From contig CAXXVO010000013.1 in NCBI GenBank assembly GCA_963422645.2, positions 1 to 64,000 on the forward strand: DNA of 64,000 nt, written 5' to 3'. The translations under genes and the position numbers were made by a program. Under the pieces are notes generated by a model. It had not been told where the DNA came from. It did no database searches and saw only the letters and a program-made list of their open reading frames with translations. Source of the stretch: Alphaproteobacteria bacterium. GTDB taxonomy: Bacteria; Pseudomonadota; Alphaproteobacteria; UBA828. Shown here in pieces: positions 21,921 through 63,230 of this stretch. Every line of letters starts with the position of its first letter. The first letter of the stretch is position 1.

Positions 21921-23426
21921 GCCTGCGGCTGCCAAGGCCCAGTCCCCGCGCCTGGCCCAGGGTCCGGGACGCCCTCATCCGCCAACGCGCTATCGGCACC
22001 GACGTGCTCGAAGCCTGCCACGGCCGAGGCCTCCTCTACGCCGATGACAGGATCAACGCCGTCTTCATCTGCCGAAACGCCAGCGGGCACACGACCGGCG
22101 CCGAGATCCTCGGCACCGCGCCGCAGCCCGGAACAAAACGCTTCAGGGGCATGGCCCCGGGATCGCGCAAGGCGCGTGGCGGCTTCTGGCTCCACTGCGA
22201 CCGAAACCAGCCCGCCCTCGTCATCCTCACCGAGAGCGCCGTCGACGCCATCTCTGCACGAAGCCTGCGCGTCGAGGGGACGCGCGAGAACGGCGCCGTC
22301 GTCGCCTCAACCGCCGGCATCGCCAGCTCGGTCCCGCCCTGGATCAAGGAGTGGAAGCCACGTCGCATCGTCTGTGCCTACGACGCAGACAGCGCCGGCG
22401 ACACTGCCGCCGAGCATCTCGTGCTCAACGATCCAAGGGTGAAAAGGTTGCGCCCACGACACGCCAAGGACTGGAACGAGATGCTCCTGCGGTCTCGATG
22501 AAAGCCAGGCCACTCACCGCTCTCGCAGATCAACCAAGCGCCGCATCACGAACATCAAATAATCCGAAAACCGCACCATCAAATGCTGGGCGCACGCTCA
22601 ACCCTGGAACGGGGCGCTCTTCCGCCGCCACCTCGAAGGCCGGTCCGACGCCGACTGGCCCGCGGCCGTGCTCGGAGGCCCGGTGCGCGGCGCCATCGGC
22701 GCACGCTCCCGAACCGTCCGCCTCTCCGCAGAAACCGCCGCAAAGCAGGCCAGGCGACACCCCGATCTCGAACCCGCAGACTACGCCCGCCTCCAGCGCA
22801 TCCTCGATCAAGGGGAGATGTTCGTGGAGGACAACGGCCGTTTCGCGCAGGGCTTCCTCGAAGAGGACGGGCGCCTGTGGAAGGCCGTCGTCAAGTCGGC
22901 CGCAGGTGGCGACGAGGCCTACATCGTGAGCCTGCACAGGTCGAAGGCCGCTGACCTCGATGTCACAAGGCGACGCTTCGGGCCGATCAGGAGGGATGGG
23001 AAGTGAGGCGCCGGGCGGGTCGCAAACCCCGCGCTCGCCCGAAGGCATGAGAGGACTGCTGCTTCCGACGCCACGCTCACCCTACGCGCCGCCGCACGCC
23101 ATCTCAAGCCGATTCAGCGCCCCGGCGCGGGCCGCCGCCAGCCTCGCGGGACGGGCGCCACGCACCGGATTTTCCAGCCGAATCCGATACCCCGAAACCG
23201 ACCCGATTTGCCGCCGTCGCAAGACCCCTGAAACGCCCCGAAAATTGCCGTTTCCAGCCAATTCACGGCCTCTGCACGGCCCGATTCGCAAAGACTTCCG
23301 TCCGCACGCCAGCCGCCGCACCGCCACCGTGCCGCCGCGCATCCCCTTGAGATTCCGCCACCTTCCGCCCGATTCCGCCTGATTCCACCCCTTGACCCGA
23401 TTCACAACGACTTTCGTCCGTCTACA
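21921..23426 (+). mobile_element. Partial inverted copy of the 56507-63015 element (3' Toprim gene, internal end, MuF C-terminus, outer end)
   Basis: 21921-22600 = reverse complement of 57667-58346; 22601-23426 = reverse complement of 56507-57332. Confidence 0.95.
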
Positions 23427-54648: not shown

Positions 54649-55773
54649 ATGGCCGCCATCCTCGAAATCCAGAATGTCACGAAGACCTTCCGCGGCGGCG
54701 TGCGCGCCGTGGACGACGTGACGCTCGCGGTCGAGGAAGGCGAGTTCCTGACCATTCTCGGGCCTTCCGGCTGCGGCAAGACCACCACGCTCCGCATGGT
54801 GGGGGGCTTCGAGTATCCCGATGCAGGGCGCATCGTGCTCGACGGGCGCGACGTGACCGACCTCCCGCCATACCGGCGGCCGGTCAACATGATGTTTCAG
54901 GACTTCGCGCTCTTTCCCCACCTCACGGTGGCGCAGAACATCGGCTATGGCCTCGCCATCGCCGGCATGAAAAAGCGCGAAGCGGCGCGCGAAGTGGAGG
55001 AGGCGCTCGGCACGATCGAGCTGCTCGACAAGGCCGATCGACGGCCAGCGGAGCTTTCCATCGGCCAGAAGCAGCGCGTGGCCCTCGCCCGCGCCCTGAT
55101 CCGGCGGCCGAAGATACTGTTGCTCGACGAGCCGCTGTCGGCGCTCGACGCCAAGCTCCGTGAATCGATGCAGGTGGAACTCAAGCGCCTGCACGACCAG
55201 ATCGGCCTCACCTTCATGATGGTCACCCACGATCAGACCGAGGCCCTGGTGATGTCCGACCGGATCGTGGTGATGGATACCGGGCGCATCGTGCAGGCGG
55301 GCACACCGACGGACCTCTACGACCGACCCGAGACACCCTACGTCGCGAACTTCCTCGGCACCTCCAACATGGTTGCCGGCACCGTGACCGGGACGGCGGA
55401 CGGCACCGCGCAAGTGAGTTGCGGCGCTGCGGATATCAGCGTCGCGCTCCAGGGCGCCGCGCCGGCGGTGGGTGCCCGGGTCACATTATCGATCCGGCCC
55501 GAGAAGGTGGTGCTCAGCGGCGGAGCCGAGCTGCCGGCCGGGTTCAACAGCCTCTCCGGCCAGCTTCGCGATGTCTTCTTCCACGGCGATTCCGTCAGGC
55601 TCGCCATCGATATCGGCGCCGAGCGGCTGCTCATCGTGCACCGCCAGCTCGAAACCGGGCTCCAACAGATGCCGCTGCCGCCGGTGGGCGGCACGCTCTC
55701 CCTCGGCTTCGATCCGGCGAGCGTGATCCTCTTCGCAGGCTCCGGCGACGCATCGGCGGACAGCGCCGAATGA
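54649..55773 (+). CDS. Polyamine-type ABC ATP-binding protein (PotA-like)
   Basis: GPSGCGKT, FQDFALFPH, LLDEPLSALD, THDQTEA; signature reads LSIGQ. Confidence 0.92.
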   Translation: MAAILEIQNVTKTFRGGVRAVDDVTLAVEEGEFLTILGPSGCGKTTTLRMVGGFEYPDAGRIVLDGRDVTDLPPYRRPVNMMFQDFALFPHLTVAQNIGYGLAIAGMKKREAAREVEEALGTIELLDKADRRPAELSIGQKQRVALARALIRRPKILLLDEPLSALDAKLRESMQVELKRLHDQIGLTFMMVTHDQTEALVMSDRIVVMDTGRIVQAGTPTDLYDRPETPYVANFLGTSNMVAGTVTGTADGTAQVSCGAADISVALQGAAPAVGARVTLSIRPEKVVLSGGAELPAGFNSLSGQLRDVFFHGDSVRLAIDIGAERLLIVHRQLETGLQQMPLPPVGGTLSLGFDPASVILFAGSGDASADSAE

Positions 55774-56506
55774 GGTACGCCCGGCGTCGCCGGCTCGAAT
55801 TCGCCGCCCTCGTCTCGGCACCTGTGATCTGGTGGGTCGTGGTCCTGTTGGTGCCTTACATTATCATGCTGATGATCAGCTTCTACCGGACGCAGTTTCC
55901 CTTCCACGTCCCCGATTTACAGGTTGCCAACTATCTGAAAATATTCGCCGAATCGCAGTACGTCACGATCCTTCTGCGCAGCCTGAAGATCTCGATCTTC
56001 GTCTCCATCGTGACCTTCGCGCTGGCCTACCCGCTGACCTATTTCCTGGTCTTCAAGGTGCGCTCGCCACGCGTCAGGACGATCATCTACGTGGCCACTA
56101 TCGTCCCGCTCTGGGTCTCCTACCTGCTGCGCGTTTACACCTGGAAAATCGTGCTCGGCACCGAGGGGATCCTGAACACCTTCCTGATCTGGATCGGCGT
56201 GGTGAACGAGCCGATCGAGGTGCTCATCTACAACCAGTTCGCCATGGTGATCACGATGGCGTACATCTTCACGCCCTTCATGGTGATGCCGATCTACGCG
56301 ACGCTGGAGAAGATCCCGCGCAGCCTGATCGAGGGCTCCAAGGACCTGGGCGTCGGTAATATCGGCACCTTCCTGCGCATTACGCTGCCGCTCTCGGTGC
56401 CGGGCATTCTGGTGGGCTTCACCTTCACCTTCTGCTTCTCGTTCGGCGACTTCATCTCGCCGCGATTGGTGGGCGGGCCCTACTCCAACATGATCTCCAA
56501 CGTGAT
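55770..56506 (+). pseudogene. Polyamine-type ABC permease (PotB-like), 3' end truncated by the transposon
   Basis: LAYP, PLWVSYLLRVYTW, PFMVMPIY, DLG...ITLPLS; stops at MISNVI|TGTAGAC. Confidence 0.88.
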
Positions 56507-56926
56507 TGTAGACGGACGAAAGTCGTTGTGAATCGGGTCAAGGGGTGGAATCAGGCGGAATCGGGCGGAAGGTGGCGGAATCTCAAGGGGATGCGGGGCG
56601 GCACGGTGGCGGTGCGGCGGCTGGCGTGCGGACGGAAGTCTTTGCGAATCGGGCCGTGCAGAGGCCGTGAATTGGCTGGAAACGGCAATTTTCGGGGCGT
56701 TTCAGGGGTCTTGCGACGGCGGCAAATCGGGTCGGTTTCGGGGTATCGGATTCGGCTGGAAAATCCGGTGCGTGGCGCCCGTCCCGCGAGGCTGGCGGCG
56801 GCCCGCGCCGGGGCGCTGAATCGGCTTGAGATGGCGTGCGGCGGCGCGTAGGGTGAGCGTGGCGTCGGAAGCAGCAGTCCTCTCATGCCTTCGGGCGAGC
56901 GCGGGGTTTGCGACCCGCCCGGCGCC

Positions 56927-57666
56927 TCACTTCCCATCCCTCCTGATCGGCCCGAAGCGTCGCCTTGTGACATCGAGGTCAGCGGCCTTCGACCTGTGCA
57001 GGCTCACGATGTAGGCCTCGTCGCCACCTGCGGCCGACTTGACGACGGCCTTCCACAGGCGCCCGTCCTCTTCGAGGAAGCCCTGCGCGAAACGGCCGTT
57101 GTCCTCCACGAACATCTCCCCTTGATCGAGGATGCGCTGGAGGCGGGCGTAGTCTGCGGGTTCGAGATCGGGGTGTCGCCTGGCCTGCTTTGCGGCGGTT
57201 TCTGCGGAGAGGCGGGCGGTTCGGGAGCGTGCGCCGATGGCGGCCATGACCGGGCCTCCGAGCACGGCCGCGGGCCAGTCGGCGTCGGACCGGCCTTCGA
57301 GGTGGCGGCGGAAGAGCGCGCCGTTCCAGGGTTGGCCTATGGCGGCGCGTGCGAGGTCGGGGGGCGCGTCGTCGATCTTCTCGATCAGGCGGTTTGCGCT
57401 GTCGCGGCCCGGCCGGGCGCGGCCGGCGTTGTGCTGGAAGCCGGGATCGATGCCGGCGGGGACCTGGTGGATGCGGCCGGTGCGGCGGTTCTTCCAGGGC
57501 CTGGTGCGCCCGGAGCCGGGCGGCGGACCCTCGGACACCTTGTATCCGTAGCGTTCGAGGTCGTCGTCTCCGAGCTGCTGGACGATGCAGCGGCACTTCC
57601 ATCCGTTGGGCGGGTAGTGGGTCTTCCAGAAGGGGTGATCGACGGGGAGCACGGTGCCGTGCCATG
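56927..57666 (-). pseudogene. Phage Mu F (minor head protein) C-terminal half plus a putative PBECR-type nuclease domain
   Basis: WHGTVLPVDHPFWKTHYPPNGWKCRC, PAGIDPGF; then LSAETAAKQARRHPDL...WKAVVK...YIVSLHR. N-terminus missing. Confidence 0.75.
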
Positions 57667-57765
57667 TGAGCGTGCGCCCAGCATTTGATGGTGCGGTTTT
57701 CGGATTATTTGATGTTCGTGATGCGGCGCTTGGTTGATCTGCGAGAGCGGTGAGTGGCCTGGCTT

Positions 57766-58635
57766 TCATCGAGACCGCAGGAGCATCTCGTTCCAGTCCT
57801 TGGCGTGTCGTGGGCGCAACCTTTTCACCCTTGGATCGTTGAGCACGAGATGCTCGGCGGCAGTGTCGCCGGCGCTGTCTGCGTCGTAGGCACAGACGAT
57901 GCGACGTGGCTTCCACTCCTTGATCCAGGGCGGGACCGAGCTGGCGATGCCGGCGGTTGAGGCGACGACGGCGCCGTTCTCGCGCGTCCCCTCGACGCGC
58001 AGGCTTCGTGCAGAGATGGCGTCGACGGCGCTCTCGGTGAGGATGACGAGGGCGGGCTGGTTTCGGTCGCAGTGGAGCCAGAAGCCGCCACGCGCCTTGC
58101 GCGATCCCGGGGCCATGCCCCTGAAGCGTTTTGTTCCGGGCTGCGGCGCGGTGCCGAGGATCTCGGCGCCGGTCGTGTGCCCGCTGGCGTTTCGGCAGAT
58201 GAAGACGGCGTTGATCCTGTCATCGGCGTAGAGGAGGCCTCGGCCGTGGCAGGCTTCGAGCACGTCGGTGCCGATAGCGCGTTGGCGGATGAGGGCGTCC
58301 CGGACCCTGGGCCAGGCGCGGGGACTGGGCCTTGGCAGCCGCAGGCGTCGCGGGGCGGCTGGGATGGTGGTGATCTCCCTCCGCCCCTCATGGCTTCCGA
58401 GGAAGCGGAGGGCTTCCGGGAAGCGGCATCCCGTCGCATGGATGACGAGGTCGATGGCGCCACCCCCTCCCGTGCCGCGCAGGTGATCGAAGAACTTCTC
58501 GCCGTTGATGCTGATGACCGAGCCCCCGCGCTTGAAGCGCGCCCGGTCGGTCGGGTCTCTGCGGTAGCCGAGGGCGGCGGCGACCCGGTCGAGGGGGATG
58601 TTGCGGCAGGTGGCCAGGGGATCGCCGCCGCTCAT
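57766..58635 (-). CDS. DUF3991 / Toprim domain protein (primase-like)
   Basis: GGGGAIDLVIH (CHC2-like region), LTESAVDAIS, CAYDADSAGD, KDWNE. Confidence 0.8.
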   Translation of the reverse strand: MSGGDPLATCRNIPLDRVAAALGYRRDPTDRARFKRGGSVISINGEKFFDHLRGTGGGGAIDLVIHATGCRFPEALRFLGSHEGRREITTIPAAPRRLRLPRPSPRAWPRVRDALIRQRAIGTDVLEACHGRGLLYADDRINAVFICRNASGHTTGAEILGTAPQPGTKRFRGMAPGSRKARGGFWLHCDRNQPALVILTESAVDAISARSLRVEGTRENGAVVASTAGIASSVPPWIKEWKPRRIVCAYDADSAGDTAAEHLVLNDPRVKRLRPRHAKDWNEMLLRSR

Positions 58636-58676
58636 TGCCGGGTCCCGGCGAAGGTCTGCTTGGAAGGGAGGCTGAC

Positions 58677-58737
58677 GGCGTTCCCGTTCCTGTACCCTTC
58701 AACGCTTAAGAGTTCCGGGAACGGGAACGGGAACGCC
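58677..58737. repeat. Inverted repeat built from GGGAAC hexamers between the helicase and Toprim genes
   Basis: GGCGTTCCCGTTCC ... GGGAACGGGAACGGGAACGCC. Confidence 0.7.
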
Positions 58738-59736
58738 TCATCCCGCACTTCCGTTGATGGCGGCAGGGGATTGCGGCTCCCGGTGCGCCTCGGCGGCTGC
58801 GAGGCGATAGCCACCCCTGGGCGCCCGTTCGATGCGCCCCTCCCTGGTGAGGCTCTCGATGGCGGCAACGACGGTGGCGTTGCGGGCAGCGGCGCGTGAG
58901 CGGATCTGGGCTTTCGAGAGCGGCTTTTCGGCCTGCTCGATCGCCTTGAAGACGCGCTGCTCGACGGTGGCGGGCTCGTGCCTGTCTTCATCTGCCGCGT
59001 CCTGGTGCAGACGGAAGGCCGGCCCATGTCCGCCGTCGACGAGTTCCAGCTCGATGTCGTTGAGGCCCCGGGCGTCGCGCTGCTCGACCGTCATGACGAT
59101 CTTCTTGTCGCGCCGGCGCAGGTACAGATTTGAGTCACCCCAAGCGTGCAGCTCGCTGCTCCCGCGCAGGGCCTGCCCCGGCCGGGTGCCGCCGCTCTTG
59201 CGGGCGTGGTGGACGAGGAGGACGGCGGTTTCGAAGCGGCGCTGCAGTTCGCGCAGGAAGCCGAGGATGGGGGCGATCTCTGCGACGGCGTTCTCGTCGA
59301 CGCTGTGCAGGCGGACCAGGGGATCGAGGATCAGGAGGCGCGGTTCGATGCGCTCCACGGTCTGCTGCAGGCGTTGACGGTCGCCGGGCCGGTCGAGACG
59401 CAGGGTGGGCACGTCGATGACGGCGATGTCGAGTTCGTCGAAGGGGGTGGCGGCGGCGCGGGCGATCCCCTGCAGACGCTTGCGCACCCTGTGGCCGGCG
59501 TCCTCGGCGGCGAAGAGCAGCACGGTGCCGCTTGCGCTGGGGCGGTAGTGGCGCAGGCATGGGACGCCGGTGGCCACGGCGACGGCGAGATCGAGCGCGA
59601 GCAGGGATTTGCCGCACTTGGGCTCGCCGCCGACGATGCCCACGGCCTGCTCGGCCCACAGCGTGTCCACCATCCACTGTTGCGCCCGGGGGCGATCCTC
59701 GAGCTGCATCGGCGCCCGTGTCGGGAAGCCCTTCAC
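58738..59736 (-). CDS. AAA_25 / RepA-like helicase with C-terminal wHTH
   Basis: GEPKCGKS, AAED, LLILDPL, LVHHARK, LRGSS; GTG overlaps the ExeA stop. Confidence 0.85.
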   Translation of the reverse strand: MKGFPTRAPMQLEDRPRAQQWMVDTLWAEQAVGIVGGEPKCGKSLLALDLAVAVATGVPCLRHYRPSASGTVLLFAAEDAGHRVRKRLQGIARAAATPFDELDIAVIDVPTLRLDRPGDRQRLQQTVERIEPRLLILDPLVRLHSVDENAVAEIAPILGFLRELQRRFETAVLLVHHARKSGGTRPGQALRGSSELHAWGDSNLYLRRRDKKIVMTVEQRDARGLNDIELELVDGGHGPAFRLHQDAADEDRHEPATVEQRVFKAIEQAEKPLSKAQIRSRAAARNATVVAAIESLTREGRIERAPRGGYRLAAAEAHREPQSPAAINGSAG

Positions 59737-60566
59737 CGCCGTGCCCTCTTCGGCTTGGCGGGCTCGCCCAGGATCTCCATGAAGAGCTTCTCGTCGAGAA
59801 CCTCGCGGTTCTTCTCGGCGCCGGCGGCGAGCAGCATGTCGCCCATGACGGTAAGCGCCCTGGGGTTGCCGCCGGCGTGGGTGACCAGGGTGTCCTTGAG
59901 CTCTGCGCTCATGAGGCCCGGATTGCCGGCCTGCTCGACCAGATGGTCGAGCAGGGCCGCGAGGTCGCCGGCGTCTGCCTGGGTCATGACCAGGCGCTGG
60001 CGCAGGCGCGAGGCGATGGGCTGCAAGTCGGGCTGGCGGAGCCTGTCGATCAGGCGGCTGTCGCCGGCGAAGACGACCGAGAGGATGGCGCGCGAGTCGA
60101 AGTCGGTGGACGCCAGCAGGCGGATCTCGGAGATCACCGAGGGCAGCAGCTCCTGGGCCTCGTCGATGAGCACCACGGGCCGCATGCGGGTGTCGTCGAC
60201 ATGGGTGAGCCATCGCTCGCGCAGGTTTTTGAAGCTGGCCCAGCGGTTGTTGTACATCAGGTCGACGCCGAACATCCCGCCGATCTCGCGGTAGAAGTCG
60301 GACAGCCTGGAAGAGGGGTGGGTGATGGCACAGACCCTGAGCCCGTCCGAGCGGCCGAGGCGGTCGGCGAGCACGCGCAACGCCACGCTCTTTCCGGTGC
60401 CGGGCTCGCCGGCGATCAACGCGAAGCCGCCCTGGCGCACAAGATGATGCTCGATTCTGAGGCAGAAGCTGTCGACGGCGGGGCTCACCATGAGGCTGTC
60501 GACCGGAAGGTCGGTGGCGAAGGGGTTCCATTTGAGCCCGTAGAAGGTGAGCAGCTCGCGGTTCAT
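59733..60566 (-). CDS. ExeA-family AAA ATPase (transposition helper)
   Basis: FYGLKWNPF, GEPGTGKS, VLIDEAQ, SRL, GNPR. Confidence 0.9.
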   Translation of the reverse strand: MNRELLTFYGLKWNPFATDLPVDSLMVSPAVDSFCLRIEHHLVRQGGFALIAGEPGTGKSVALRVLADRLGRSDGLRVCAITHPSSRLSDFYREIGGMFGVDLMYNNRWASFKNLRERWLTHVDDTRMRPVVLIDEAQELLPSVISEIRLLASTDFDSRAILSVVFAGDSRLIDRLRQPDLQPIASRLRQRLVMTQADAGDLAALLDHLVEQAGNPGLMSAELKDTLVTHAGGNPRALTVMGDMLLAAGAEKNREVLDEKLFMEILGEPAKPKRARR

Positions 60567-62039
60567 GACGGATCTCCCTGATCGTCGTCCTCGCCCGGAC
60601 CGGGCGTCTTGTTATGGGGTACCCAGGCCGGCGGCAGGCCTGTTGCGGCCTGGGCGTCGAGCACGCCCTTGAGCAGCGGCGGAAGTTCGCCGACGCCCGC
60701 GCTGGCGCCGCCATGGTCGCTGCCGGGTCTCGCAGGACGGCGGACGCCATCGGCGTTGCCGCGCTTGTCGAGGGGGTACAGCGTGCACAGCCGCTCGCCG
60801 CTTCGGCCTTCCACCAGATCGACGCCGCTGAGGTCCCAGCGCGCATAGCGGACCCAGAGCGTCCTCAGGTGGCGCCACGGCTGTGGCACCTGGTAGCGGA
60901 TGCCCCTCGACCGAGACGGTGCCGTCCGAGCGCCTGAGCGTGCGCTTCCTGGCGATGCGGAAGGCCGCCTTGAGCTCGTCCGAGGCGGGGCAGGGCCTCG
61001 ATGCCTTGACGCTCCCGGCGAGGCGTTCATGCGGCGTCATGCCGAGCTCGCGGTGCACCCGCCGATGGTAGTCCTGCTCCAGCCAGGCTATGGTGGCGTC
61101 GTTGAGCATCTTCAGGGTGAGCGCGTCGACGCCTTCGAGCTGAGCCATCAGGCGGCCCTCGACCGTGCCCCAGAACGACTCGATTTTTCCATTTTGATGG
61201 GGGCTGTAAGCGAGTGTCGTGGCCCCCACGATGCCGAGGCGGTGCAAGCCCTCCTCGACCTCGCCCGCCGTCATCGGCCCGCCGTTGTCGGTCAGCAGGG
61301 ACCTGGGCAAGTCCCTCTTCATGAAGGCCTGACAGAGCCCGTGGACGAAGACCTCGGCGGTCTCCTCCAGGTACCACTGCAGGTGGCAGCCAAGCCTGGA
61401 GTGGTCGTCGAGGAAGCCGAGCAGGATGGGCGTCTGCCATTCGCCCGACGCCGTCAGCACGCGGCGCTTGCCGTGGTGGAAGTCCCCGTGCCACAGCGCG
61501 TGACTGCGAGACACCTCGTAGCTAAGGACCTCGCGGGCTTCGACCGCCGGCTTGTCCTCACCCTCGTGCCACTTCCTGGGGCGCTCGCGCACCAGGCCGC
61601 GATTGCGCATCGCCCGCGTCAGCGTCGCGTAGGACGGCATCGGGCCGAGCTCGGGATGGGTCGCAACATGAGCCTTGAGGGTCTCGTAGTGGAGCTGCGC
61701 CGCCCACGAGGGATGGACCCGGTACTGCTCGCGCAGCGCCGCGATCAGCCCCGCCGACATGGACCGCTCGCGGCCGACGTCGGTCCGAGGCTTCCGGCGC
61801 AGCGCCTTGACCGGGTCCTGCTCCTCTGCCCGCGCCCGGTAGTACCAGCGCTCGATCGTCGAGGCCGCAAAGCGCACCGGCCCCTTGCCCGACGGGTGCT
61901 CCCAGTCGCGCTGCGACAGACGCTCGAACTCGGCCCCCAGCTGGCCTGCAGGCGGCGGTGAAGCCAGAAGCGGCCCCACCACCGCAAAGCGCAGCCGGGC
62001 CCACTTCTCGCGCCTGGCGCCTGCGTCGTCCTTGTCCAT
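60563..62039 (-). pseudogene. Mu/TnsB-like DDE transposase, +1 frameshift in the C-run at ~60903
   Basis: WHGDFH, LDDHSR, TDNG, NGKIESFW; DGTVSVEG|IRYQVP continues in the 60563-61030 frame. Confidence 0.88.
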
Positions 62040-62088
62040 TCCGGCATCCCTCCCTCGCCGCATCGGAGAGATGCCCATGTAGAACGCC

Positions 62089-62506
62089 CTATCCGGGCGT
62101 GACAGGAACACTTTCTGCGGGCGGCGCCGAGCCATCGCCGAGCCCGCAATAGCCCGTCCACGGCTTGAACCAGATCAGGCTCAGGAACAGACGCTCACCG
62201 AAGCGTCCGCCCCGCATCTGCCGCAGCACGAAGAGCAGCGGCACCTCCTCGGGTGGCATCACCAGTTCGCCACGCTTCGCTCCCCAGGGCTCCGTCGCCG
62301 GGAACGCCTCCAGCCACCACTTCCGCCAGCGGCGCAGTGTGGCGACCGAGACCCCCCACTTCCGCTTGATCGTCTGCAACCGCACCCCGCCTCTCAGAAC
62401 CAGTGCACTCAACAGAACGAACAGGGCGCCCAGATAAAAGCGGCGCCCGAAGAATCGTACCGATGGTGGGGTCGCTCGCAGGCGGCAATCCGCGCAGCAG
62501 AAGCTT
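62089..62506 (-). pseudogene. Accessory Cys-rich/HTH ORF preceding the transposase, 5' truncated
   Basis: SFCCADCRLRATPPSVRFFGRRFYLG...VSVATLRRWRKWW; no start codon upstream of 62506. Confidence 0.65.
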
Positions 62507-62507
62507 C

Positions 62508-62843
62508 ATGCTCCAGGCCCTGCTCCCGCCCGCGCTGGAGGCGCTCACCTGGCGATGCACCGTCGCGGCAGAGCCCTGCGGACGCTGCCCCCGATGCCGC
62601 CTCAACGCCTTCTTCGAGCGCTTCTGCCGGGGACGCCCGGCGGACCAGGTCGCCCGCATCGACGACGCCCTCGAACGACACCGCGGCGCAGGCCGATGGT
62701 ACGCCGACGCCGACCCCGGAAGATGGACCGATCACGACGGATACGACGCCGCAGAACGCGCCGTCGAAGACCCCGAATGGTGGAAGGCCGAACTCGAACG
62801 CCCGTGCCGCCCCGGCGCCCGCCCCGGTCCCGACCGCGCCTGA
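62508..62843 (+). CDS. Hypothetical protein (CxxCxxC) near the element end
   Basis: ORF with PCGRCPRC and plausible codon usage; family not recognised. Confidence 0.35.
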   Translation: MLQALLPPALEALTWRCTVAAEPCGRCPRCRLNAFFERFCRGRPADQVARIDDALERHRGAGRWYADADPGRWTDHDGYDAAERAVEDPEWWKAELERPCRPGARPGPDRA

Positions 62844-63015
62844 AACCCCCACGCACCGCCCGTGCACGGGCCCCGAAACCCCCGCGCAGCGCTCCTTCAT
62901 GGCCCATGCACAGGCCGGTTTTTCCAGCCCGGTTCAGCCCCGAAAACCAGCCGATTTTCCAGGCCATTCGCAAAGACTTCCGGCCGCGATTCGCAAAGAC
63001 TTTCGTCCGGCTACA

Positions 63016-63230
63016 ATGGTGACCCTCTCGCCCCGAATGTGGATCTCGCCACTATCCATGCGGTAGGCGCCGGCGAGAATTTTGATAAGCGTGGATTTGC
63101 CGGCGCCGTTGTGGCCGACGACGCCGAGCACTTCGCCGCCCGCGACCGCGACGGAAACATCCTCGACCGCGTGGGTGCCGCCGAAGCTCTTGTAGATGTT
63201 GCGCATCTCGACCAGGGGCGGCGTGGTCAT
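63016..63230 (-). pseudogene. Sugar ABC ATP-binding protein, 5' fragment cut by the transposon end
   Basis: KSFGGTHAVEDVS...[16 protein letters not shown]; paralog of 41276-42052. Confidence 0.88.

Follow-up and report, generated by a model that had tools for sequence, protein, structure and literature searches.

A RepA-type helicase gene and its adjoining hexamer array in Tn6049-family transposons: a candidate cassette for transposition-coupled replication initiation

DDE transposons of the Mu/Tn552/Tn5053/Tn7 type carry several transposase-binding repeats at each end, make a 5-bp target duplication and encode a resolvase or TnsA. How the replisome is recruited to the strand-transfer intermediate is, to our knowledge, understood only for phage Mu, whose replication depends on host restart proteins. 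One account of Tn6049 (PMC2864759) describes a 3.5-kb element with 12 copies in CH34, each with a gspA-like ATPase gene, gspA being the name used there for the Tn6049 homolog of the ExeA-like ATPase discussed below. Published descriptions also give Tn6049 12-bp imperfect inverted repeats (published repeat TGTGCaTaAGCA) and 4-bp direct repeats. According to PMC9371898, the Rep protein of Staphylococcus aureus pathogenicity islands (SaPIs) recognises penta- or hexanucleotide iterons through its winged-helix C-terminal domain and needs no loader; these iterons, 6–12 in number, directly follow rep in two oppositely oriented halves that flank a central region. IEE is a PrimPol-helicase that stimulates excision of insertion sequences (IS) and is tied to DDE transposition involving replication. 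Here we describe EL, a 5.19-kb TG..CA transposon of which one copy, with its genes on the minus strand, lies in a 64,000-nt stretch of DNA from an Alphaproteobacteria bacterium (contig CAXXVO010000013.1, positions 1 to 64,000; hereafter the window). An earlier reading of the letters alone (the original prediction) had placed a five-gene transposon here and suggested that it may replicate itself. We found that the helicase gene of EL is followed by an iteron-like hexamer array, and we propose that the AAA_25 helicase docks on this array and that the cassette most likely replicates a Mu-like strand-transfer intermediate from inside the element, a reading to which we assign a probability of roughly 0.55 from comparative sequence evidence. 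The features are collected in Table 1.

Table 1. Features of EL and of the repeats around it, in window coordinates
Feature	Position	Strand	Remarks
EL, window copy	57667..62505	-	truncated, frameshifted Tn6049-family element
EL terminal inverted repeat, Toprim side	57667..57677		5'-TGAGCGTGCGC; flanks of 10 copies diverge exactly here
DUF3991-Toprim_2 protein, 289 aa	57766..58635	-	predicted DnaG-like primase catalytic core (Pfam; fold)
Inverted 3+3 tandem hexamer array, 61 bp	58677..58737		putative iteron origin / helicase docking site
AAA_25 RepA-like (SF4, RecA-fold) ATPase/helicase, 332 aa	58738..59736	-	Pfam AAA_25 E 2.5e-36; GTG start overlaps ExeA stop
ExeA/GspA-like AAA_22 ATPase, 277 aa	59733..60566	-	Pfam AAA_22 E 6e-19; MuB/TniB-type partner
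DDE (rve) transposase	60563..62135	-	frames 60612-62135 and 60563-61030; 524 aa intact (491 aa from M33)
ORF1, residues 68-205	62089..62505	-	Cys-rich and helix-turn-helix (HTH) protein; HTH_23 (62089-62412)
Outer left repeat	56507..57666		not EL; TGT... terminus with 22-nt repeats and 3' end of MuF-domain gene (Pfam Phage_Mu_F)
Outer right repeat	62506..63015		not EL; terminal 510 bp of ~750-bp repeat with >20 copies, elsewhere flanking phage-tail-like genes

A sequence search of the PDB with the AAA_25 protein returned a single match, RepA of RSF1010 (1g8y, E 1.9e-8, residues 32-196); the same searches with the transposase, ExeA and Toprim proteins found nothing. The NTPase motifs, Walker A and Walker B among them, were invariant in 17 AAA_25 sequences down to 41% identity. 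The invariant motifs are GGxPKxxKS, AED, LDP, DEN, HHxxK, GQxLRGS and GDSN, and the invariant residues include K40/K43, E78, D138, H176/H177 and Q188/R191. Starting 1 nt past the AAA_25 stop and read in gene sense (58737-58677), the array consists of GGCGTTCCCGTTCCCGTTCCC, a 19-nt spacer with a central CTTAAG, and GGGTACAGGAACGGGAACGCC; folded as DNA it scores better than all 200 shuffles (z -3.7). We found a homologous array after AAA_25 in 36 of 41 distinct loci, laid out as three hexamers, a 16–22-nt spacer with a CTTAAG-, CCTAGG- or CTACAG-like centre, and three inverted hexamers. The hexamer itself varies by lineage (GTTCCC, GTTACC, GTTTCC, CTTCCC), both arms changing together. The five loci without an array are L037 and L078 (cut by contig ends), L085, and the distant L173 and L174. 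No array was present after ExeA in any of ten loci of the three-gene clade described below (best score 4), none of 200 random flank windows reached a score of at least 9, and the array matched neither an intrinsic terminator nor an Rfam family.

We asked how far the two arms vary in concert. RNAalifold returned no consensus for the MAFFT alignment of the array, because slips in the hexamer register misalign the arms, and pairing was hence counted on a fixed, hand-written structure of 19 pairs. On this structure 73.2% of cells were paired (66.7 ± 0.8 in shuffles), 58 cells had changed on both sides (24.6 in shuffles), and the covariation score was 0.219 against 0.111 for shuffled rows, a value that none of 500 shuffles equalled, while slid controls gave 0.05–0.15. 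Double changes affect 10 of the 19 pairs, which is unexceptional (72 of 500 shuffles), and the rows are related. In the putative recognition helix of the AAA_25 protein one Arg/Lys is invariant (R279 in EL), and across 42 distinct rows we compared the residue that follows it with the hexamer. All 11 rows with Asn have GTTCCC, all 4 with Pro have GTTACC and both with Met have GTTTCC; of the 18 with Thr, 14 have CTTCCC, the exceptions being L021, L032, L078 and L088, and Ala is mixed (7 rows). The Asn/GTTCCC combination recurs in three or more distinct clades of the transposase tree (that of EL, L071/L074/L077 and L081/L166), and the sister elements EL (G000) and L092 differ in both partners, N/GTTCCC against P/GTTACC. 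This match is what would be expected if the C-terminal domain of AAA_25 reads the hexamers. The original prediction had seen in the helicase and Toprim genes a possible replication module of a self-replicating transposon, and the helicase-linked, iteron-like array together with the protein–DNA covariation gives that idea real and concrete support.

Sequence comparison identifies EL as a member of the Tn6049 family and not as a new family. Its transposase is 47.7% identical to Tn6049 TnpA (pHS87a, CH34) over 95% of the length (tblastn, E 1e-129), and the transposase matches among 72,556 plasmid records were all of the three-gene Tn6049 type, in Cupriavidus metallidurans and on P. aeruginosa pHS87a; pMOL28 has the same gene order, annotated as a small 'transposase', an 'IS481 family transposase' and an 'AAA family ATPase'. 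Judged from copies within single genomes, three-gene elements measure 3441 bp, four-gene elements (with AAA_25) 4355–4384 bp and five-gene elements (with AAA_25 and Toprim) 5161 bp. To gauge how these forms are distributed we took a census of 80 loci, retrieved with a transposase profile from one-genome-per-species contigs. AAA_25 follows ExeA in 56 of the 80; it is absent from six loci with at least 1100 bp of room, two of them damaged copies, while 14 loci end too early to tell and four, cut or damaged, lack ExeA. Apart from these four, ORF1, TnpA and ExeA are found in company throughout the loci. Toprim was found in 4 of the 34 AAA_25 loci that extend at least 1100 bp further. A quick maximum-likelihood transposase tree, from which six rows with stops in the high-scoring segment pair were dropped (L026 included), grouped the three-gene forms, Tn6049 among them, in a single clade (SH-aLRT 95) that excludes the four- and five-gene forms; four-gene forms fill most of the other clades, and the five-gene forms require at least three changes. 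Among 400 sampled genomes of the phylum, a close AAA_25 was found only in the window's genome, and three held a distant trio in the same order (TnpA 28%, ExeA 30% and AAA_25 42% identical). Because this distant trio keeps AAA_25, the helicase is an old, integrated part of a broad transposon group and the primase an add-on. The compact transposon family of the original prediction is thus real as a DDE/AAA+ element, whose DDE transposase is partnered by an ExeA-type AAA+ protein, but is not new as such, being the Tn6049 family; of the gene array said to characterise it, the helicase is integral, co-occurring with the transposase clade (56 of 80 loci) and also with the 28%-identical transposase, whereas Toprim is sporadic (4 of 34) and was gained at least twice.

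We found no description of the four- and five-gene forms in the literature searched, which comprised main texts and had the original Tn6049 description outside its scope; the helicase–iteron(–primase) cassette thus appears undescribed there. Family elements occur in metagenome-assembled genomes (MAGs) labelled as at least 10 phyla. Near-identical transposases (branch 0–0.04) are found across MAG phylum labels, in L044 versus L049 and in L036 versus L039 versus L065 (Betaproteobacteria/Deltaproteobacteria and Alphaproteobacteria/Dormiibacterota, respectively), which reflects either recent horizontal spread or binning errors.

The ends of EL were defined from its copies. Within the bacterium's own 5.9-Mb genome, only 57666/7-62505 of the predicted transposon is repeated at ~100% identity (genome search). 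The window copy is about 99.8–100% identical to the nine other full-length ones. In all, the genome holds 10 full-length and about 30 partial copies at 99.4–100% identity, with 26 left and 24 right ends and a mean of 23 copies per position; intact copies are 5190–5193 bp long (reference copy G000:C8:807700-812891 = L004:1502-6693). Ten aligned full-length copies share their sequence inward from TGAGCGTGCGC and are unrelated outside it, which identifies 57667, noted in the original prediction as an end-like repeat, as a genuine terminus. The opposite end of intact copies reads ...GCGCGCGCTCA, with the reverse complement TGAGCGCGCGC, so that the element is bounded by 11-nt inverted repeats, TGAGCGTGCGC / TGAGCGCGCGC, in eight complete copies. 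Logan contigs from four public sequencing runs break exactly at both ends. Intact copies had been proposed as the place to look for target duplications, and we found these in three of the eight complete copies (ACGG and ATGT, 4 bp; GGGAA, 5 bp), the other five having none. Some EL ends are joined to internal positions of other EL copies. We found no subterminal repeated sites in the 320–370 bp of each end, and profile scans detected neither a TnsA-like nor a resolvase gene, with no further EL ORF of at least 80 aa carrying such a domain.

Since EL has no TnsA-like 5'-end nuclease and no resolvase, the most likely use of the cassette is replication of the branched intermediate of Mu-like replicative transposition. 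In the sequence of events we envisage, the ExeA-type ATPase would capture the target and activate the transposase, like MuB, TniB and IstB, and strand transfer with a 4-bp stagger would leave a branched intermediate. A self-loading AAA_25 would dock on the array through its C-terminal domain and open the DNA there, as SaPI Rep does on iterons, and AAA_25 hexamers loaded at this internal array would unwind outward. Five-gene forms would make primers with their own primase and four-gene forms would rely on host DnaG, and the host polymerase would then duplicate the element, making transposition independent of host restart proteins. The five of eight complete copies without a duplication, and the ends joined to internal positions, are consistent with replicative or intramolecular events.

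Several observations weigh against this proposal. Homologous recombination between the 23 copies can likewise leave copies without a target duplication. The match between residue and hexamer could partly reflect co-inheritance of the cassette, given that the rows are related, that Thr and Ala are mixed and that L021 and L032 are exceptions. Within the last ~80 residues of AAA_25, winged-helix Pfam matches are sub-threshold only (E 0.006–0.2), the spacer shows only slight AT enrichment (42% GC in the window copy), and the palindrome may be an operator. Of the 34 AAA_25 loci with enough sequence beyond, 30 lack Toprim. The cassette is, moreover, accessory, because three-gene relatives such as Tn6049, with its 12 copies in CH34, transpose without helicase or array. 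The read data, which consist of assembled contigs whose depth cannot serve as copy number, point the same way: no contig from the four runs (X1, X2, X3 and X5) joins a right EL end to a left one, although contigs cannot exclude circles, and word depth in X5 was 426–457 within the element against 9–21 in the flanks, values that fit the ~23 assembled copies. One 597-nt skip was seen in one X3 contig (side 20). Of the two signs for which the original prediction had suggested looking, circular forms did not appear, and coverage was about what the chromosomal copies would give; there is thus no sign of an extra-chromosomal excess, although contigs cannot exclude an excised form.

These data bear also on a second use for the same cassette, namely as a plasmid-type replicon that maintains an excised, circular transposon as an episome and so raises its copy number or allows its transfer. 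The evidence for a Rep–iteron pair (the array in 36 of 41 loci, the covariation and the SaPI parallel) would serve this explanation equally. The transposase has its best NCBIfam match, below the cut-off, to IS481, and IS481/IS3-type elements move through circles; the short inverted repeats and 4-bp duplication would also fit. Even so, we consider an episome unlikely, if credible. The missing abutted-ends contig is weak evidence against it, and depth matches the chromosomal copy number, but the element also contains no partition or copy-control genes, and its MuB/TniB-type ATPase suggests that targets are captured in a Mu-like way. Four- and five-gene forms were found on none of the 72,556 plasmid records, in which AAA_25 itself had no match at 1e-12 and four weak ones at 1e-5 (28–35% identity).

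The possible operator raises the question whether AAA_25 is a replicative helicase at all. It could instead be a regulatory ATPase that binds DNA at the palindrome to repress the element, to confer target immunity or to select targets. Autoregulators typically have a palindrome beside their own gene, such transposons employ additional specificity factors (TnsD/TnsE/TniQ), and the existence of three-gene forms shows that the chemistry does not need the protein. We nevertheless regard a regulator as quite improbable, as the site lies 3' of the gene and not at a promoter, with nothing downstream of it in four-gene forms to be regulated. Moreover, every RepA-type NTPase motif stays invariant at identities as low as 41%, tandem hexamers in two opposed sets are the layout of helicase-loading iterons, and a primase gene has been added beside the site more than once.

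That primase gene is the last of the element. The Toprim protein folds, in its predicted model, like DnaG primase and is predicted to be a primase. Its AlphaFold2 (AF2) model has a predicted local distance difference test (pLDDT) score of 79, exceeding 90 for most of residues 100-289, and Foldseek gave 1eqn, 2au3, 5guj and 1nui as top matches (probability 1.0); among the PDB matches listed, all 39 with E<=1e-3 were primases of the DnaG/T7 gp4/Twinkle/T4 type. Residues E201, D251, D253 and D257 are invariant in 15 Toprim sequences. No Cys is conserved in the N-terminal 90 residues, where pLDDT is low; this part resembles a zinc finger lacking its Cys residues. To see where else this gene occurs, we scanned metagenomes with a Toprim profile and recovered 80 loci, of which 63 have IstB directly upstream. 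In 29 of the 80 a full IS21-like set of ~4.9 kb was present (a small ORF, a ParB/KorB-like gene, IstA, IstB and Toprim), and in L121:108-4995 perfect 52-nt terminal repeats enclose all five genes. L121, L105 and 61 further metagenome loci are of this same IS21-like type. No description of an IS21-like element with Toprim was found in the literature searched. Two of the Toprim loci are Tn6049-like five-gene elements (L092 and L166). A Toprim tree (FastTree) united the EL-type primases in one clade, and the L166 primase nests among those of the IS21 type. As IS21-like elements carry the gene and L166 has an IS21-type version of it, the primase has been recruited repeatedly by DDE+AAA+ transposons. 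An apparent Tn3 association of the gene (L169) was rejected, because the gene begins within or beyond the right arm of a pair of 69-nt inverted repeats and hence lies outside the Tn3 unit that they mark.

The same relatives admit another reading, in which helicase and primase are hitch-hiking passengers of plasmid or conjugative origin, or serve the host or a plasmid, for instance in defence or in primer synthesis following conjugation, and have no role in movement. Toprim relatives are fused to Mob_Pre (MOBV) relaxases as relaxase–DUF3991–Toprim proteins (L130:4930-6678, L131:6137-7930 and L155:19-1356), the gene is patchy in the family, and the Toprim part has a weak PADLOC match to the DRT 'RTasDnaG-like' model (E 3e-9). 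We think this very unlikely. The element has no relaxase or oriT, AAA_25 is translationally coupled to ExeA by a 4-nt overlap and is kept with TnpA and ExeA down to 28% transposase identity, and the same type of primase is the last gene of a second DDE+AAA+ transposon family. In PADLOC the AAA_25 protein matched no model, and no defence system was recognised in the region (two weak partial matches).

Among the remaining genes, the transposase and the ATPase fit a Mu-like transposition apparatus in their family assignments. All five co-oriented minus-strand genes of the original prediction are present with the domains it gave them (Pfam), and both 4-nt stop/start overlaps were confirmed (transposase–ExeA, 60563/60566; ExeA–helicase, 59733/59736). 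The transposase matches PHROG 310 (transposase, E 1e-33) and has thousands of relatives of ~491 aa; its IS481 match in NCBIfam has E 1.6e-31 and 110 bits where the cut-off is 224, and a profile search against the PDB gave weak matches to retroviral integrase cores only. Pfam Mu-transpos_C matched nothing in the bacterium's genome, nor in the control genomes. The ExeA-like ATPase matches PHROG 296 ('DNA transposition protein', E 6e-19), so that in PHROGs transposase and ATPase correspond to the A- and B-type proteins of transposable phages. ORF1 is 205 aa when intact (L004:5926-6543), and in 16 sequences its Cys residues (C36, C39, C70, C71 and C74) and a 'TLxRWRxWW' helix are invariant. Its AF2 model (pLDDT 62) had no Foldseek match at E<=0.001, and the ESM Atlas offered a lead only, to DUF6431/HTH clusters. 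NCBI labels the genes separately, as 'IS481 family transposase', 'AAA family ATPase' and 'toprim domain-containing protein', and the element is therefore invisible as a unit in annotation. Long spurious ORFs abound because the region has ~68% G+C. In the part missing from the window copy, between the EL end and the ORF1 start, lies a terminator-like hairpin of 16 pairs with a T-rich tail (L004:6586-6622, minus strand), which may block read-in transcription.

The copy in the window is damaged, as the original prediction had recognised from a frameshift and a missing left part. The transposase frameshift is due to an extra C at 60903, in a C-run, found in one of ten aligned full-length copies, that of the window alone; it is a real mutation or an assembly error, the two being indistinguishable in such a run. 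A programmed frameshift was rejected, since the other copies have a single 524-codon frame. Past 62505, where the window copy stops, nine other copies continue together, and the eight with enough sequence run 351 bp further to ...GCGCGCGCTCA; the window copy consequently lacks the first 67 codons of ORF1 and the final 351 bp of the EL end. A 3-bp GAT indel (one Ile) in the transposase at 61235 (L004:5070) sets two of ten copies apart, and the GAT is lacking in contigs of all four runs.

What surrounds the window copy is not EL. The original prediction had taken 56507..63015 as the transposon, and read in this way the whole interval would be one element bounded by 31-nt inverted repeats (56505-56535/62987-63017). 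These repeats are 90% complementary and have TG..CA termini with subterminal 22–23-nt repeats, 23-nt tandem repeats lying at 62963-63008. This reading is hardly tenable and must be considered refuted: the ten EL copies have unrelated flanks beyond 57667, both arms occur independently elsewhere in the genome as other repeat families with copies of their own, and the outer flanks interrupt an ABC permease gene and an ABC ATPase gene on opposite strands. The left arm has long and short forms elsewhere, 80–100% identical, with the full 849-aa MuF gene at L091:10903-13452, and the right arm alone occurs in 20 full-length and several partial copies. The window thus contains a truncated EL nested between pieces of other elements. 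The junctions cut different genes, the permease at 55419-56531 (plus strand) and the ATPase at 62934-63230 (minus strand); the outer flanks are therefore not one interrupted target, and rearrangement has occurred. Both outer repeats have TGT..ACA termini and 22–23-nt subterminal repeats containing CGAAAGTC, and the ~750-bp repeat, in inverted orientation, flanks GpJ-like, Phage-tail_3 and DUF1833 genes in L090; they may be what is left of a prophage-like family with many copies, perhaps a transposable one.

EL meets other repeats elsewhere too. A second EL fragment in the window, at 21921-22600 (minus strand; EL positions 2-681), abuts another left outer repeat at 22599-23426 (99% identical), so that the two families meet twice in the window. 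Across the genome, 36 of 50 EL ends abut repeats of at least three copies (30 of other families, four of the outer family and two of another EL copy), where 155 of 600 random 150-bp windows (26%) fall in such repeats; EL either nests in mobile DNA or has survived only there. EL copies are themselves interrupted, by a 2159-bp insertion sequence with a 4-bp overlap of the flanks (G000:C8:591889-594047 and C19:10810-12968), and by a 1764-bp insert at the same EL position (463-466) in three copies (C11:81206-82969, C13:130153-131916 and C18:66194-67957). The shared position implies that the interrupted copy was itself duplicated.

More broadly, and at somewhat less than even odds, we suggest that these elements form a widespread, undescribed class of compact DDE transposons that are minimal replicons, combining an iteron origin with a matching RepA-type helicase that loads itself and, in several lineages, with a DnaG-like primase of their own, able to start their own duplication without host restart factors. 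If so, the independent uptake of the same primase by IS21-like elements, there alongside a ParB-like protein, would mean that DDE+AAA+ transposons have turned more than once to initiating replication with genes of their own, and EL would offer a simple, testable model for transposition-coupled replication initiation. Such autonomy could also explain the very wide phylogenetic spread of the elements. The residue-to-hexamer code (N/C, P/A, M/T) offers a direct handle on binding specificity, and the ~1.1-kb cassette of helicase and 61-bp site could become a portable origin.

Compared with known systems, EL is closest to Tn6049, with which it shares the order ORF1–transposase–gspA/ExeA ATPase, short imperfect TG repeats and a high copy number; target repeats are 4 bp long in Tn6049 and 4–5 bp long in the three of eight complete EL copies that have them. 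Tn6049, however, has three genes in 3.5 kb, whereas the 5.19 kb of EL also hold a RepA-like helicase, the hexamer palindrome and a primase. With Mu, Tn552, Tn5053, Tn402 and Tn7 it has in common an rve-fold transposase, TG..CA ends, a dedicated AAA+ partner and the PHROG A/B families, but it differs from Mu, Tn552, Tn5053 and Tn7 in having no repeated subterminal sites and a duplication of mostly 4 bp instead of 5 bp, and it lacks the resolvase of Tn552 and Tn5053 as well as TnsA and TniQ/TnsD. IS21 (IstA/IstB) elements are alike in being DDE+AAA+ transposons with a homologous DUF3991–Toprim gene as the last one inside the terminal repeats; their transposase and ATPase belong to other families (IstB_IS21), and they carry a ParB/KorB-like protein and a small ORF but no helicase. 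IEE is likewise a primase/helicase protein functionally linked to DDE transposition, yet it is encoded outside the IS, has a PrimPol fold and promotes IS loss, and so is not part of the IS. Unlike DnaG, the EL primase has neither a Cys4/CHC2 zinc-binding nor a C-terminal helicase-binding domain and ends right after Toprim. The AAA_25 protein resembles RSF1010 RepA in sequence and in its conserved NTPase motifs; RepA, though, is not known to have a DNA-binding domain at its C-terminus, and it depends on RepC to recognise the origin and on RepB' to prime; AAA_25 ends in a putative winged-helix-like region. The pri-rep-ori module of SaPIs and phage-inducible chromosomal islands differs in that the EL helicase is of the RecA-fold AAA_25/RepA type and not of the SaPI Rep type, that the EL primase lies downstream and is optional, and that the carrier is a DDE transposon and not an integrase-borne island. 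It is nonetheless this module that the EL cassette, a putative origin module, resembles in layout, with a possibly winged-helix-like C-terminus, opposed sets of hexamers downstream of the helicase ORF and an adjacent primase.

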